This document shows positions 3,419 through 9,878 of a DNA stretch of 64,000 nt, piece after piece. Location of the stretch: assembly GCF_024700885.2 (NCBI RefSeq), contig NZ_CP117016.1. The stretch is one strand, 5' to 3'. Source of the stretch: Escherichia coli. Lineage in GTDB: Bacteria > Pseudomonadota > Gammaproteobacteria > Enterobacterales > Enterobacteriaceae. Every line of letters begins with the position of its first letter. Position 1 is the stretch's first letter. Made by a program: the position numbers and the translations under genes. The notes below the pieces were generated by a model, which made no database searches, was not told where the DNA came from, and was given only the letters and a program-made list of their open reading frames with translations.

Positions 3419-3503
3419 GCCGAAGTGGCGAAATCGGTAGACGCAGTTGATTCAAAATCAACCGTAGAAATACGTGCCGGTTCGAGTCCGGCCTTCGGCA
3501 CCA
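3419..3503 (+). tRNA. leuX: tRNA-Leu (anticodon CAA)
   Basis: 85-nt sequence GCCGAAGTGG...TTCGAGTCCGGCCTTCGGCACCA with a CAA anticodon loop and long variable arm; genomic position after ahr. Confidence 0.9.
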
Positions 3504-4016
3504 AGTCACTAAATTCCTTACAATACAGGTAGTTAGACAATAAAATCTGTCTCTTTTGCCTGTAAGAAATGCTCTGTTATGTCCCTTGAAAAAGCCGCTG
3601 TGGTTGATAGTGGTAATTGGGATGTTAACTCATAGCGGCGTGTAGTTCCAAGCGTCAAACACGTACTGACTCAACTTGAAAGCTATGACGTAGCCACTGT
3701 CTCTAAACAATCCCAAAAACTTTTAGTGAAGCGCATTTTAGCCCGATGCCCCCGTTCTGCCGCTGTCGCGAGACGCCGCAGGGGATAAACAGGTTTATGG
3801 TGGTCACGGTACTTGCAGACCATATGCAAGCTCTGCCAGCGGTTCGGCCTCGCTCCCCTTGGGTACATGGTCATCCTGATAAGCCTCACTAACTGACATA
3901 ACTGTGATGTAGTCGCCAGAGGCTCCGCTTGTTGTCTTACCACCAACGGGGCTTTATGGATTCTATTGCGGTATGTTTGAAAGTGCGCGGGGGTTCATTC
4001 CCGCGCGTCCGGCGCT

Positions 4017-4931
4017 TTATGGTAAGTATTTAAGTATTTCTGCTGCCCAGTTTACACGGTGGATGACACGGGCATGGTGCAAGTTTCCGTCTAGTATTTC
4101 GGCTTTAGTTAGCTGGGATAACTGCTGCCAATTATTGTTAAGTATATAAGTTGCGTTATTACATTGTGAGCTTTCTAGCACGTAAATGTTTTGGCCTGTG
4201 AACCCAAATATCACGTAGCCTTGGAACCCAGCTTGCCCAACCGCTACGAAATCTGGTTTTTTACTATTGATAAGTTCAAGTCTGCCTTCAACAACAGCGG
4301 TATTGCCCTTTCCCCTGATCTTAATAGCTGAAAGGATTTTTGAGCCGATAGTACTCCAAGGCTGTTGACCCTGAGGCAGGAGGCTCCAGTTTAGTTTTAT
4401 AGATTTACTTTTAACGATGGTATTAAGTTGGTCGTCAACAGTTTCGCACAACCCAAAAAGCTCTAAAAAAAGATTAATGCAGTGAGCCACTAACTCTTTG
4501 TTGTTAGCTGTCAAACTTAGCTTTGGAGAGATGATCAACTTCTCCCCTTGAAGATTCTCTACAATCTTTAACTCTATGCTTGGTGGAGGGGTGAGGATTC
4601 TCTTGTAGCGCTTATACTCAATTTCACGAGTGTCAGTAACTTCTTGAGTTGCGCCCCCTCCGATCCATTGCTTTCTAGTCCATGAAATTTGTCTGTATGC
4701 AGTTTCTTTAGGTGCTGTTTTGTCAGGTACTGATTTGCCATTAGCATTGAATCTGGTTATTGGCCCTAAAATCTTGGGGAGGACTTCTTCACCTAAAGCT
4801 CTTTGACTTGAGAAACCAATAGAGTCCGTTTTCCCCGCATCTGGCAAAGAATGTGCAATGTAGATATCACGGCCATCAAAGTTAGGTATGTAATTATCAA
4901 TATTTCGAATACGCTTTTTCTGAATAAGCAT
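4017..4931 (-). CDS. Hypothetical protein, 304 aa, no family recognised
   Basis: Long ORF in AT-rich island DNA; no motif I can assign. Confidence 0.6.
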   Translation of the reverse strand: MLIQKKRIRNIDNYIPNFDGRDIYIAHSLPDAGKTDSIGFSSQRALGEEVLPKILGPITRFNANGKSVPDKTAPKETAYRQISWTRKQWIGGGATQEVTDTREIEYKRYKRILTPPPSIELKIVENLQGEKLIISPKLSLTANNKELVAHCINLFLELFGLCETVDDQLNTIVKSKSIKLNWSLLPQGQQPWSTIGSKILSAIKIRGKGNTAVVEGRLELINSKKPDFVAVGQAGFQGYVIFGFTGQNIYVLESSQCNNATYILNNNWQQLSQLTKAEILDGNLHHARVIHRVNWAAEILKYLP

Positions 4932-4994
4932 GGATCGTTCCTTTTGATTTTATCTTACTGTTTACATAACCAACCAAGCCGGGCACAATCGAGC

Positions 4995-5094
4995 CGTTAG
5001 AAACGATAGTGAGGCTAACAATCGTTATGAGTTTGCAGACTCATGGCGGTCATGCTTCATAGACCGGATTCACGCAGGTGACTCCGGTTTTTTT
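4995..5094 (+). ncRNA. Candidate small structured RNA with intrinsic terminator
   Basis: Three consecutive hairpins by eye (aacgat/atcgtt; atgagt/actcat; ccgga/tccgg) ending in a 7-T run at 5088-5094; possible sigma70-like promoter (tttaca-17 bp-cacaat) upstream. Confidence 0.3.
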
Positions 5095-5906
5095 ATGCCC
5101 ATCATTTATACATGAGCACAACATATAGGGTGTGTTAATAAGATTACCCCCTACATGTTCAGCATTCTAGTTAGGATTCTTTGCAGTACAAGGGGTGATT
5201 TTGAGGTTAAATTGAGGTTGTCAAAGGGAAATTTCGACCAACCCTACGTGCCGTAAGGCTTAGGCTGTATGTCAATGTTTCAGAAAAAAAATGAAAATTT
5301 GATCGAGTGCTGATTTCTTTAGCACGAGAACATGAGATCGAACCAAAATATTGCAAAGTTTTGAACAAAACTTGAGCTGCCTCGTGTCTCCATAGCCAAG
5401 ACGAATGCAGTTTAAATAAGCTAAGTCAGCTCTCAAAAGTCCTTTATGACCCGAACCAAAAATTGTACCTCTTAAACCCCCACCGCAAGCGGCTCTCCGG
5501 GGTTTGTGCGCGTGGAGTAATGCGATTGTACTGGGTATGTGCGCACAACCCTCTACAAGCCGCATTCTACCGTTAGCCTATAGCTGAATCCCCGGCTTGA
5601 AAAATTGCACGCTTATGGTTGCCCCTCCCTCAACTGTATAGCTCGCCCGCGCCCCCGTGCGCATGTGCGTGCCCGCGCGTCAGGGGTCGCTGAGAAAACC
5701 CTAAGATTTTGCTCATCCGAGACAACCGTTGCAGGCGCGCGTTGCCGGGGCACACTGTTAGTGTTTGATGGTGTCATCAATCGACCGTTTTCTGGCACCT
5801 CCCAATCGCACGCTTTCACACTGTTGGAAAAATAGCCTTGGCTTTTCTGGCAGGCCATCCTAATGTTGGCCTCGTTTTCTGGCAGGGGTCAGATGGGGAG
5901 ATAACA

Positions 5907-6467
5907 ATGGCAACTTTTGGCTACGGACGTGTTTCGACATCGCAGCAGGATACTGAGAACCAACGGCTGGAGCTTGGGCAGGCTGGGTGGCAAATTGATT
6001 ACTGGTTTGCCGATGTTGTTAGCGGGAAGGTTCCGGCAATGCAACGTAAAGCATTTTCTGAAATGCTCAATAAAATCCGCGATGGTGAAACGTTGGTGGT
6101 AGCGAAGCTTGATCGTCTGGGGCGTGATGCGATTGACGTCCTGCAAACGGTAAGGGCGCTGGCTGACCGTAATATCAAGGTTCTTGTCCACCAGCTTGGT
6201 AACACAGATCTCACTTCTGCCGCTGGGAAGTTGCTATTATCTATGCTCGCCGCGGTTGCGGAGATGGAGCGTGATCTGCTGATTGAGCGCACTCAGGCGG
6301 GACTATCACGAGCAAAAGCCGAAGGTAAGAAATTGGGCAGACCTCCTAAAATCGCGTCAGAAGCCCGTAGAGAGATTTTAGAGAAAAAGAATAGCGGTTT
6401 GAGTATCAGTGCGTTAGCGCGTCAATATGGCGTTTCAAGAGCGACTGTAGCAGCTATTACCGATTGA
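5907..6467 (+). CDS. Small serine recombinase (resolvase/invertase family)
   Basis: N-terminal GYGRVSTSQQ catalytic-serine motif and C-terminal HTH (LSISALARQYGVSRATV); start at MATFGYGRVS with SD ggggag. Confidence 0.85.
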   Translation: MATFGYGRVSTSQQDTENQRLELGQAGWQIDYWFADVVSGKVPAMQRKAFSEMLNKIRDGETLVVAKLDRLGRDAIDVLQTVRALADRNIKVLVHQLGNTDLTSAAGKLLLSMLAAVAEMERDLLIERTQAGLSRAKAEGKKLGRPPKIASEARREILEKKNSGLSISALARQYGVSRATVAAITD

Positions 6468-6480
6468 ATATGGAGAGTTT

Positions 6481-7326
6481 ATGGCTTACACAGCAACTGT
6501 TATCCCTGTAATGATTGCTTCTCCTGGTGATGTCGCTGAAGAGAGACAAGTCATTCGTGAAATGATCCATGAGTGGAATGATATAAATTCAGCTCGTTCA
6601 AAAGTAATGTTGACACCAATTGGATGGGAAACTCATACATCACCCGAATTAGGAGTTAGGCCTCAGAAGTTGATTAATCAAAGATTATTAGTAGATTGTG
6701 ATTTATTAATCGGTGTGTTTTGGACTCGTCTAGGCTCACCGACTGGGAACGAGGCCAGCGGAACAGTCGAAGAAATCCACCGTCATTTGAATGCGGGAAA
6801 ACCGGCAATGATTTACTTTTCCTCAAAGCCTGTTGCCCCTGAAAGCCTTGATAGAGAACAATATGAGTCTCTTAAATTGTTCAAAACTGAGTGCATGCAA
6901 AAGGGATTGATAGAGTCTTTTAATGACTTATCTGATTTCAAAGACAAAGTCCGTAGGCAACTTTCGATAATTATTTCTAGTAGCCCTTATTTGTCTTCTC
7001 TTATATCTACCATTAACAATTCTCCTGATGCGAATACAAGTCAATCTTTGCCAGAAAGTAATTTGTCCGCCGATGCACTCAGTTTGCTGAAATTGGCATG
7101 TGTCGATGATAGCGGAACAATTTATGTGATAAGGCATTTAGGTGGCACGGATATTCAAGCGGGAAATCAATCCTTTGGTGGAAGTTCGGCTAGAGAGGTA
7201 GCCCGTTGGGAGGGCGCACTTAACGAACTGTTATCCTTTGATTATGTGATTGAAAGAGGGGCAAAAGGACAAATGTATTATGTTACTCATAAAGGCTGGA
7301 CATTTCTTGAATCTTTAAATGAATAA
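6481..7326 (+). CDS. Hypothetical protein, 281 aa; N-terminal motif resembles DUF4062/TIR-like domains (tentative)
   Basis: Starts 13 bp after the recombinase stop with its own SD (ggagag); N-terminus VMIASPGDVAEERQVI fits a strand-SxxD-x-EER pattern; C-terminal half unassigned. Confidence 0.6.
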   Translation: MAYTATVIPVMIASPGDVAEERQVIREMIHEWNDINSARSKVMLTPIGWETHTSPELGVRPQKLINQRLLVDCDLLIGVFWTRLGSPTGNEASGTVEEIHRHLNAGKPAMIYFSSKPVAPESLDREQYESLKLFKTECMQKGLIESFNDLSDFKDKVRRQLSIIISSSPYLSSLISTINNSPDANTSQSLPESNLSADALSLLKLACVDDSGTIYVIRHLGGTDIQAGNQSFGGSSAREVARWEGALNELLSFDYVIERGAKGQMYYVTHKGWTFLESLNE

Positions 7327-7386
7327 TTAAATGCGAGGCCATTACATAAGTTTATTTTTGATGTGAGGGTGAATTCCCTCACATTT

Positions 7387-7881
7387 TTATTCGAAAGAGG
7401 CCGCAATGACTTCTCCTGTTTTTGCGTTGAAAACACAAAAGTATTGAAGCGGAGCTAGCATCCCCAAGCCGTTAACTACCTTAGCTTGTTGCCCAAATGC
7501 CTGAATAATCTTCGCATTCTCATCGTGCCAGAGATAAGTATTAAATACAGGCGCTTCGCTTTCTTGCCACACATGGCGAAACTTCGCTTTCTCATCCATT
7601 ACCTTTTTGCACTCCCTGACCGGGTTATGGTGCGTTTTCGCATAGCATTCCGGGTTGTCATCTGCACATACGATATCTTTTCGTGCTGTCTGATGCTCAG
7701 CACCTACAGCAGAAAAGGCGCATACGCCCAGCACCAATGAGAGAGTGCCCAGAGCACCCCATACAGTTGCGCGTAGCGTGCTGATGTGCTGCTTTGATAC
7801 AGCATGGGCAACTACACTATAACTGGCCCAGCTAATCGCGGCTCCCGCTGCAATCGGTAGTAAAAAGTCTGCTCCCGTCAT
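7387..7881 (-). CDS. Hypothetical membrane protein (two predicted TM helices plus Cys-containing soluble domain)
   Basis: ORF with hydrophobic N-terminal segments; start set at MTGADFLL with SD gaggga. Confidence 0.5.
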   Translation of the reverse strand: MTGADFLLPIAAGAAISWASYSVVAHAVSKQHISTLRATVWGALGTLSLVLGVCAFSAVGAEHQTARKDIVCADDNPECYAKTHHNPVRECKKVMDEKAKFRHVWQESEAPVFNTYLWHDENAKIIQAFGQQAKVVNGLGMLAPLQYFCVFNAKTGEVIAASFE

Positions 7882-8121
7882 GATTCCCTCACTTTCCAAA
7901 CCACATCGCGCCTGATAGCGAACGCTGGTGACGCCCAACCGATGATGATCATCATACTTGTTGGGTTTTAAATGTCACCATTGGTGTTTGTTTTGAATCA
8001 AAAAGGATTGTCATGATACAGCCGATGAATGCTAGTGACTAAGCTCGCTGACGTGAGATTGGATTCAAAATATCTCATATGGAGCGTGGCCTTACAGTGG
8101 TCAAAATTGCACATTCAGTGC

Positions 8122-8586
8122 ATGAAAAAATCCCTGAGAATACAGTTTGGCGAGCGGGTAAAAGAACTGCGCATTGCCACCGGATTGAGCCAGGAGGCCT
8201 TTGCCGATCGGTGCGGGTTTGCACGTAGTTATATGAGCAGAATTGAACGTGGTGGCTCTAATGCGTCTCTGGATGCGATTGAGGTGCTGGCTAACGCTCT
8301 GAGCGTTGAGCCGTGGCAGTTGTTAGCGCCTGGCCCATCTGAAGATAACGACTCGGAACTGTTGGTTCCATACGCAGCCGATGGTTCCTGTTTTCACCCC
8401 GGTTTGGCGAGCACCCGTGATGGCTCGTTTGGCGTAGGTGATAAAGCGGCTCAGAAGCGTTTTGGCACGTTTGCTGAAGCTCTTGAGTATCTTCGTAGCA
8501 TGGAGACAGCAAAATGGCGTAGGCCTAATCCTAGCGGCAACTGGGGTATCGTATCAGCGGTTCGGTGGGACAAACTGAGAAAGTAG
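8122..8586 (+). CDS. XRE-family HTH transcriptional regulator with unassigned C-terminal domain
   Basis: N-terminal HTH (LRIATGLSQEAFADRCGFARSYMSRIERG); start at MKKSLRIQ. Confidence 0.6.
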   Translation: MKKSLRIQFGERVKELRIATGLSQEAFADRCGFARSYMSRIERGGSNASLDAIEVLANALSVEPWQLLAPGPSEDNDSELLVPYAADGSCFHPGLASTRDGSFGVGDKAAQKRFGTFAEALEYLRSMETAKWRRPNPSGNWGIVSAVRWDKLRK

Positions 8587-9076
8587 CTCAAGTGTAAGTT
8601 TATGAATTTTCATGCTGTATGGATGAACAGTATTCATTAGATGCTGATAGTCTTATGTTTCATCAGCCCTTTGTTTCTATAAGAGTGAATAAAACAGCAA
8701 AATGCGGGTGCGTTACGTAGGCGTTACGGTGGCGTTTCGCTTTGGCTCTTAATGGCTTAATTCATATAAATAACATTGAGTTAAATAGTTATTCTGAACA
8801 AGGTCTGCCGGGGTCTAACTGGTTTCAAAATCCGAACGCAGTGGCGTTTATTCAACGTCCACATAGCTGACAAATGTTCTTTCCTCCCGACTCGGCAGAC
8901 CTCCAGAAACATTAAAAGGCAGGTATGGCACGTTGATGTTTTATGCCGCCACGAACACTCGGTTTGATTCCGTCCAGCGGATCAAACTTAATATGTAGCC
9001 CCTAGAACAAAAAGGTCCTACGATTGCTCTCTTAACAGCTAACAGGAACGTGATTACAGCAGGTTATAGAGACTTA

Positions 9077-9101
9077 GGTTCGAGTCCGGCCTTCGGCACC
9101 A
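9077..9101 (+). repeat. Direct repeat of leuX 3' end (att core copy)
   Basis: 25/25 identity to 3479-3503. Confidence 0.85.
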
Positions 9102-9115
9102 AAAGTATGTAAATA

Positions 9116-9138
9116 GACCTCAACTGAGGTCTTTTTTT
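9116..9138 (+). terminator. Native leuX Rho-independent terminator, displaced 5.6 kb from the tRNA
   Basis: Hairpin gacctc-aact-gaggtc followed by TTTTTTT, immediately after the second copy of the tRNA 3' end. Confidence 0.6.
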
Positions 9139-9287
9139 ATGCCTGAAATCCAGTGTTTATCTATCTTTCCCGCTATATTAACTCTCTCAAGGTCAACCGA
9201 TATCAACGTACATCTACCAACATATGTTGGTACAGATGATGGTATTTCCGGTTCGATAATGCTTGTACCAACAGGGAGGGAATACGC

Positions 9288-9878
9288 ATGGCATTAACAG
9301 ATATCAAAGTCAGAGCAGCCAAGCCAACGGATAAGCAATATAAGCTGACTGATGGTGGCGGTATGCATCTGCTTGTCCATCCAAATGGTTCTAAGTACTG
9401 GCGTTTGCAGTACCGTTATGAGGGAAAGCAAAAAATGCTGGCACTTGGGGTTTATCCTGAAATCACACTAGCGGATGCCAGAGTACGTCGTGACGAGGCG
9501 CGTAAGCTGCTTGCGAATGGCGTCGATCCGGGAGACAAAAAGAAAAATGATAAGGTTGAACAGAGTAAAGCACGAACCTTTAAAGAAGTCGCGATTGAGT
9601 GGCATGGCACCAATAAAAAGTGGTCTGAAGATCACGCCCATCGTGTGCTAAAAAGTCTTGAAGATAATCTTTTTGCAGCGCTTGGTGAACGTAATATCGC
9701 TGAGTTAAAAACTCGAGATTTATTAGCACCTATTGTTCCTTTAACCATCCGCAATGGCCAACGGTTTACAGAGCATAATACGAATAGCCGTAGAGCCAGC
9801 CAGTTACGGTGGTCGCGATGGTGTGTCCGCCAGAAAATCACCACGAATACCAGAATCGCGGCACTGACCAGAAAATGA
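9288..9878 (+). pseudogene. P4-type tyrosine integrase (IntB-like), N-terminal ~150 aa only
   Basis: MALTD.KVRAAKPTDK...YWRLQYRYEGKQKMLALGVYPE matches the P4-integrase N-terminal arm; similarity is lost near 9740 and the catalytic domain is absent. Confidence 0.75.

Follow-up and report, generated by a model that had tools for sequence, protein, structure and literature searches.

Phage-inducible chromosomal islands (PICIs) are phage satellites that carry defense hotspots. Such hotspots are also carried by P4-like phage satellites (Rousset et al., 2022, PMC9122126), and the tRNA gene leuX of Escherichia coli marks defense hotspot #37, the most occupied and most diverse one according to the main text of two sources, in which most occupants of the hotspot are reported to have no detectable intact mobile element and many to keep integrase or recombinase genes (Hochhauser et al., 2023, PMC10121019; EcoSal Plus review, PMC12707154). 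At the level of individual genes, 2026 preprints describe DUF4062 proteins with auxiliary domains as single-gene abortive-infection defenses, including Swarozyc, a TIR-like NADase activated by the phage portal (its member KpSwz has the catalytic residue E97 and an auxiliary domain of the helix-turn-helix (HTH)/winged kind), and the related family Evangelion (bioRxiv 10.64898/2026.05.01.722283, 10.64898/2026.06.25.731849). Here we analyze a 64,000-nucleotide stretch of E. coli DNA (contig NZ_CP117016.1, assembly GCF_024700885.2; hereafter the window), in which a block of 5,573 bp (positions 3504–9076) is bracketed by leuX and a copy of the 3′ end of this gene, the putative attachment (att) core. 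We conclude that the block is a new instance of the known leuX situation, holding one just-described defense family and one unassigned family, and that it is likely a non-autonomous, immobile composite remnant of two integrase-bearing leuX elements, with a small putative defense payload.

The block resembles the occupants of hotspot #37 in its locus and in having variable defense cargo delivered by tRNA-integrating elements; the difference is that this chimera and its two parental element types are not described in the main text of either source (PMC10121019, PMC12707154). The initial annotation of this DNA had put the block forward as a candidate for an undescribed system, and that part of it falls away, given that the genes come from separate modules, that leuX is published as a hotspot, and that the DUF4062 family was described in 2026.

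A leuX Insertion Composed of Two Half-Elements

The two halves of the block match the ends of two kinds of leuX element, here termed B-type and A-type. The left 2.1 kb (3504–5634) is colinear with the left end of a B-type element in strain EC1094 (locus L015) at 98.4–99.0% identity, with 99.0% over positions 3992–5634, and a second B-type element, in EC09 (L016), matches positions 5588–5783 at 98.0%, after which the sequences diverge. For the right 3.3 kb (5775–9102), the counterpart is the right end of a 7.3-kb A-type island, present in strain 73 (L006), at 99.2% identity. By this comparison, the block joins a B-type left end (3504 to ∼5775) to an A-type right end (5775–9076) and keeps neither integrase. 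Since one half is 99% identical to the left end of one integrase-bearing leuX element and the other half to the right end of another, we read the block as a deletion or recombination remnant, and the proposal that it is a compact element in its own right is not upheld. The features of the block and its borders are the following (aa, amino acids).

3419–3503, plus strand: intact leuX, tRNA-Leu(CAA) (ARAGORN; Rfam tRNA, 59 bits)
3479–3504: left copy of the 26-bp att core (leuX 3′ end), exact repeat
3504–3969: non-coding left arm of the B-type element, 466 bp, with no annotated feature; elsewhere a variable cargo slot follows it
4017–4931, minus strand: putative cargo gene for a 304-aa protein (WP_000908169.1) of a widespread single-gene family; 41% G+C
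4932–5774: B-type non-coding DNA upstream of the serine-recombinase slot, with matches to L015 and L016 and no Rfam match
5775–5906, plus strand: left limit of A-type homology and three direct copies of (C)GTTTTCTGGCA (5788–5797, 5843–5852, 5875–5884), a putative res/operator array
5907–6467, plus strand: small serine recombinase of the resolvase/invertase type, 186 aa, with C-terminal HTH (phrog_125, 1e-55)
6481–7326, plus strand: DUF4062 (TIR-like) protein with C-terminal auxiliary domain, 281 aa, in a cargo slot (Pfam, PADLOC, and fold matches); 40% G+C
7360–7385: terminator-like hairpin between two convergent genes
7387–7881, minus strand: predicted membrane protein, 164 aa, A-type scaffold (phrog_20749, 5e-102, function unknown)
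8122–8586, plus strand: XRE-family HTH regulator, 154 aa, A-type scaffold (HTH_31, 4.7e-14; PADLOC control-protein models, 1e-18)
8587–9076: A-type non-coding right arm, contiguous with the 99.2% match to L006
9077–9102: right copy of the 26-bp att core, exact repeat
9115–9139, plus strand: terminator-like hairpin (9115–9132) with T-run, directly 3′ of leuX where the insertion is absent
9288–9878, plus strand: truncated P4-type tyrosine integrase of an older island, outside the block (phrog_1 covers the N-terminal part only; incomplete, missing C-terminus in RefSeq)

ARAGORN finds leuX as the sole tRNA gene in the window, and its last 25 bases plus the next A make up the direct repeat GGTTCGAGTCCGGCCTTCGGCACCAA; the repeat had been recognized as exact from the start, with a length of 25 rather than the actual 26 bp. 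By our own arithmetic, the chance expectation for such a pair of 26-mers in 64 kb is ∼5e-7. Duplication of a tRNA 3′ end is the signature of tyrosine integrases. The terminator-like hairpin and the P4-type integrase remnant beyond the right copy are present as first annotated. The view that the block entered later, between leuX and what remains of an older P4-type island, is borne out: among 5,426 complete E. coli genomes, 2,201 match a synthetic “empty” junction (leuX, terminator, integrase) without interruption.

Between the repeats lie the five open reading frames (ORFs) given above, with the gene content as originally read, including the small serine recombinase and the XRE protein; none of the five is a tyrosine integrase in searches with PADLOC, NCBIfam, and PHROGs, again in line with that reading. 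Non-coding DNA amounts to 2,291 of 5,573 bp (41%), close to the early estimate of ∼2 kb. The G+C content is 45.5%, compared with 53.5% in the core flank, and the AT-richness is centered on two genes, those for the 304-aa and 281-aa proteins (41.1 and 40.2% G+C).

The B-type elements are a leuX-integrating family of ∼15–16 kb, represented by EC1094, EC09, and the MMC-J-0066/E2348-69 type (L008 27393–42170). From one att copy to the other, they contain the 466-bp arm, a cargo slot, non-coding DNA, a serine recombinase, a DEAD/DEAH helicase, and a major head protein, followed by HNH genes, a second cargo slot, and a 402-aa tyrosine integrase. The 466-bp arm occurs at 96.5–98.4% identity in five loci (L005, L006, L008, L015, L016), in each directly after an att copy. 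In the EC1094 element (L015 14348–30620), the arm is split by ISSen4 and precedes a gene for an identical 304-aa protein, behind which come ∼1 kb of non-coding DNA, a serine recombinase of 210 aa that differs from the one in the block, the helicase, small genes, the major head protein (phrog_267, 2e-67), HNH genes, endonuclease genes, and, at the distal end, a TIR-domain protein beside the 402-aa integrase. These elements look like capsid-encoding phage satellites: the B-type parent is ∼16 kb in size, integrates at a tRNA gene, encodes an integrase along with a helicase and a major head protein, and has a variable cargo slot at either end. It differs from P4 in having no psu, delta, sid, or alpha-type primase by its annotation. 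The integrase, replication, and helper-hijacking genes of a phage satellite (P4-like, PICI, or capsid-forming PICI) are absent from positions 3504–9076 and occur only in this parent.

Between their two att copies, the A-type islands hold a 636-aa integrase followed by NIPSNAP and DUF1643, then the triple-repeat site and the serine recombinase, a cargo slot, and the genes for the membrane protein and the XRE protein. The leuX-proximal integrase matches phrog_1 and Pfam Phage_integrase and has an N-terminal DUF6538, and this end of the island adjoins leuX in most of 891 matching genomes, including ATCC 25922 and O157:H7. In strain 73 (L006 219–7507), the cargo slot holds a DUF4062 gene and the island ends at a 26-bp att copy; the right att of the block has this A-type form, whereas a B-type right end has 32 bp of identity. 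A ∼1-kb gap without annotation separates NIPSNAP from DUF1643 in the A-type islands (L006, L007, and L018 20360–27700).

Both element types exchange genes in their slots. Behind the 466-bp arm, the alternatives are the 304-aa gene, a DUF3800 trio (MMC-J-0066/E2348-69), three hypothetical genes (EC09), and AbiJ-NTD4 (in remnants), and strain E1739 has an Eco29kI restriction-modification (R-M) system in the equivalent leuX-proximal slot, with an arm that is 83% identical over ∼165 bp only. In the A-type slot, the DUF4062 gene is replaced by an HNH endonuclease in an 88%-identical variant (L007) and by an AAA ATPase in another, while a plasmid (L020) has the module of DUF1643, recombinase, and membrane protein with the slot empty. 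Because the slots hold alternatives, and because the two AT-rich genes have ∼40–41% G+C against 49–53% in the scaffold genes, both appear to be cargo in variable slots. The defense-type cargo of the block agrees with the initial annotation, which had seen in it the profile of a defense or accessory islet.

The Joint and Its Proposed Origin

The two parental types each use a tyrosine integrase to target the same 26-bp leuX 3′ end, and because they share this core, tandem arrays are expected. Such an array is present in E1739, where next to leuX lies an element that carries R-M and Kiwa and has its integrase at the far end, and where, beyond it, an A-type island with an att copy on each side precedes a P4-type integrase; strain 73 has the reverse order, an A-type island and then a B-type remnant. 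The block would have originated after a B-type and an A-type element had become tandem neighbors at leuX. Deletion or recombination between a point shortly upstream of the B-type recombinase slot and the outer edge of the A-type site array would have removed both integrases together with the middle att copy, leaving the B-type left end and the A-type right end between the outermost att copies. The block would then have been fixed in place and inherited with the surrounding island, which is the most likely outcome because its arms come from two different elements and it has no integrase.

The E1739 locus (L018 10506–20192, 27836–31015) is in itself a three-layer defense accretion, with Eco29kI R-M and Kiwa in one element, an A-type island that carries a DUF4062 gene and has a pseudogenized integrase, and a P4-type integrase followed by a frameshifted RNA-directed DNA polymerase gene.

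Several points weigh against this history. The exact tandem precursor, a B-type element with the 304-aa cargo followed by an A-type island, was not found in any genome, and the E1739 array matches the synthetic junction at 86% only, with different cargo in its first element. The joint (5775–5783) lies at the outer edge of the first recombinase motif, not at the dyad center where a resolvase cuts, and the B-type parents examined carry other recombinase types (27 and 47% identity). Furthermore, presence or absence with exact att junctions would also fit rare excision and integration in trans.

At the boundary marked by the joint, conserved DNA gives way to variable DNA in all A-type variants as well as in the plasmid copy. 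Because it recurs in all variants, and because other recombinases have their own triple motifs in the same position, the recombinase and its site appear to form an exchangeable cassette, and the position of the joint hints at site-specific recombination. A joint made by the resolvase itself is an attractive possibility, given that the breakpoint borders on the site array; the outer-edge position and the differing B-type recombinases weigh against it.

Distribution and Inheritance of the Block

Strains AVS0787 and 21366 have the 14-kb context of the window with exactly 5.6 kb absent; the comparison of E. coli leuX loci proposed at the outset shows the block present or absent as a unit. The entire block was found in 79 genomes at 99.8–100% identity. 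The right-hand island is the same in all carriers inspected, and none of the matching genomes showed the block at another locus. For the carrier that diverges most, the differences amount to 0.23% in the block, 0.33% in the right-hand island, and 2.4% in the left core flank; because block and island diverge to a similar extent and the core flank by 2.4%, the block travels with the right-hand island and not alone. There is no sign of independent mobility in this pattern.

These data also bear on whether the block could be an integrase-less, satellite-like mobile element that is moved in trans by a tyrosine integrase encoded elsewhere. Exact 26-bp att repeats, precise presence or absence in an otherwise identical context, near-identity among the carriers, and a 2.4% difference in the left core flank between two of them would all suit such an element. 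We nevertheless consider it unlikely, since the arms derive from two different elements with unrelated integrases, since block and right-hand island diverge jointly in carriers that share the same island, and since no second locus is occupied. The neighboring integrase, to which mobilization in trans had been tentatively attributed, is truncated, and the RefSeq annotation of an identical genome lists no intact integrase in the remaining window, so that attribution is not sustained. Compared with a tRNA-targeting island, the block has the flanking tRNA 3′-end repeats, but it has neither its own tyrosine integrase nor the two arms of a single element, which would provide cognate attL and attR for excision. 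The composite remnant remains our preferred reading.

Strain PO06021 matches positions 3504–6734 only; the match breaks off inside the DUF4062 gene and is followed by a CoA-transferase gene. This form is a further deletion variant.

The Serine Recombinase and Its Repeat Array

The 186-aa recombinase has an N-terminal catalytic domain with the active-site serine and the motif YGRVSTSQQ (within the catalytic motif FGYGRVSTSQQ) and a C-terminal HTH, and it matches γδ resolvase (1.4e-25) and Gin invertase (6.5e-23) over its full length, as well as Tn3 resolvase. Copies with 91% identity are found on E. coli plasmids. The array upstream of the gene consists of three direct copies of CGTTTTCTGGCA, which are kept in the A-type variants while the DNA upstream of them differs, and the 47%-identical recombinase of EC09 has a triple motif of its own. 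Likeness to the γδ/Tn3 resolvases and their res sites lies in the small serine recombinase with C-terminal HTH and in the three motifs within ∼100 bp upstream, comparable to subsites I–III; the differences are that the motifs of the block are direct repeats without clear dyad partners and that there is no transposase. From these features, the original role of the recombinase was probably multimer resolution and/or autoregulation via the upstream array.

Across loci, three small serine recombinases (27–47% mutual identity) each have their own 8–10-bp motif in three copies directly upstream of the start codon, namely TTTTCTGGCA, TGCTACC, and TTTTGAGAC, at sites in the window (5788–5884), L016 (9190–9318), and L018 (13059–13140, minus strand). 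In L016, the first motif is bracketed by a 12-bp repeat, GGTGTCATCAAT.

Being the only recombinase in the block and having a repeat array upstream, this enzyme could be taken for the integrase that inserted the block into leuX. That role is extremely improbable: the enzyme is of the γδ-resolvase/Gin type, the motif array is internal to the block rather than at its ends and is unrelated to the att core, the same module is found on plasmids and within A-type islands possessing a tyrosine integrase of their own, and the duplicated tRNA 3′ end points to tyrosine integrases. A segment invertible by the recombinase was also considered and rejected, the sole inverted match to the window motif being a 9-bp copy at 7049, which is at chance level, and long inverted repeats being weak (76–93% over 14–21 nt).

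The DUF4062 Cargo Protein

Three proteins of the block had been regarded as not assignable to any family. For one of them this does not hold: the 281-aa protein has a DUF4062 domain (Pfam PF13271, 3.9e-4; PADLOC PDC-S60 over residues 8–167, 1.3e-26). Its predicted flavodoxin-like fold matches TIR and nucleoside deoxyribosyltransferase (NDT) structures in Foldseek searches, and residues E97/E98, in the sequence GTVEE, are invariant in 30 homologs. A helical stalk leads to a folded C-terminal domain (residues 197–281) of mixed helix and sheet with a weak winged-HTH match.

The protein shares with Swarozyc and Evangelion an N-terminal DUF4062 domain, a helical stalk, a small auxiliary domain at the C terminus, a length of ∼280 aa, its encoding by a single gene, and an occurrence on mobile elements; its invariant Glu may correspond to the catalytic E97 of KpSwz. 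On the basis of the sequence and the predicted structure, it is a probable Swarozyc/Evangelion-type NAD-depleting defense gene product and, by analogy with Swarozyc, would act as a phage-triggered, TIR-like NADase leading to abortive infection. Against this assignment, residues R18 and W176 of KpSwz as quoted do not match the sequence, and the KpSwz residue numbers do not map onto it, which leaves membership at the level of architecture only; for this reason, the protein may belong to another lineage. Its identity to EcSwz (UPI0002A39D72) was resolved neither by the preprint supplements nor by a protein-cluster look-up.

The 90%-identity cluster that holds this protein also lists members named “recombinase family protein”, of 164–197 aa. 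Because the two genes are only 13 bp apart, this mixed cluster may be an artifact of clustering or gene calling.

A Widespread 304-Residue Protein Family

The 304-aa protein remains the sole truly unassigned one of the three; it has no model in PADLOC, NCBIfam, PHROGs, or Pfam and no recognizable fold, and a literature search with its accession returned no paper. It belongs to a family of 2,021 clusters at 50% identity, nearly all of ∼300 aa with full-length matches, the members of which are 40–47% identical across bacteria and methanogens. Relatives in AFDB are labeled “uncharacterized” except for three with an automatic “restriction endonuclease” label. In all ten sampled contexts the homolog is a lone gene. 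Its neighbors are SIR2_2 genes and ImmA/IrrE-type regulators, in two contexts each, as well as a Tn7-like end, the end of a prophage, and genes for HNH or ThiF proteins. Settings of this kind, namely satellites, prophage ends, Tn7-like elements, and SIR2/HNH-rich islands, recur in the family, which spans bacteria and archaea.

Because the gene occupies a satellite cargo slot and has 41% G+C, a role in defense or counter-defense is plausible from its sequence context. One possibility, which we put forward tentatively and with more doubt than confidence, is that the protein founds a new family of single-gene defenses against phages or mobile elements, whose fold would resemble no solved structure. 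A Type II R-M assignment was rejected, as there is no recognizable nuclease fold and no methyltransferase immediately adjoins a homolog in the ten sampled contexts. Two kinds of neighbor could be accessory or regulatory partners: homologs lie beside a small DUF2188 protein in two unrelated contigs (L013 4625–4858; L022 6957–7205) and beside an HTH_3 and Peptidase_M78 (ImmA/IrrE-like) regulator in two (L012 3970–4962; L013 3207–4448).

The solitary occurrence of the gene also bears on whether the five genes of the block form one coherent, undescribed multi-gene defense system, as their shared location in a defense hotspot and the conservation of the block in 79 genomes might suggest. We regard this as very unlikely: the 304-aa gene stands alone in the sampled contexts and occurs in B-type elements without the other block genes, the DUF4062 gene likewise occurs alone and is swappable, and the two halves of the block differ in origin.

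Remaining Features of the Block and the Window

The two A-type scaffold genes complete the block. The 164-aa membrane protein has no Pfam match and is conserved in L006, L007, L018, and the plasmid L020. Inside the A-type arm, 116 bp upstream of the right att, lies a degenerate third copy of the repeat, similar to a tRNA 3′ end (69%; 8961–8986), which could represent an older att site that has decayed or a T-arm-like match arising by chance. A structured RNA in the ∼2.3 kb of non-coding DNA was considered and rejected: Rfam searches at E ≤ 1 gave only the tRNA and one sub-threshold potC match, and the z-scores obtained by folding positions 5470–5780 were only −0.15 and −1.67.

The rest of the window (14001–64000) is a large, decayed leuX island with many insertion sequence (IS) fragments (IS66, IS3, IS1, IS110, IS21). 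Its genes include those for sugar and acid utilization, lpxM, a virK fragment, and Ag43, and it also contains a CP4-44-like module with an antirestriction protein, a JAB-domain protein, YeeU, and CbtA.

Implications

Three practical leads follow from the analysis: a DUF4062 (Swarozyc-like) gene that occurs naturally in E. coli, a 304-aa protein family that is widespread, unannotated, and found in defense slots, and leuX elements resembling capsid-encoding satellites, with two cargo slots and interchangeable serine-recombinase cassettes. The block furthermore offers a worked example of how integrase-less mini-islands in the leuX hotspot can arise, in which tandem site-specific integrations, followed by internal loss of the mobility genes, would leave defense cargo frozen in the chromosome.

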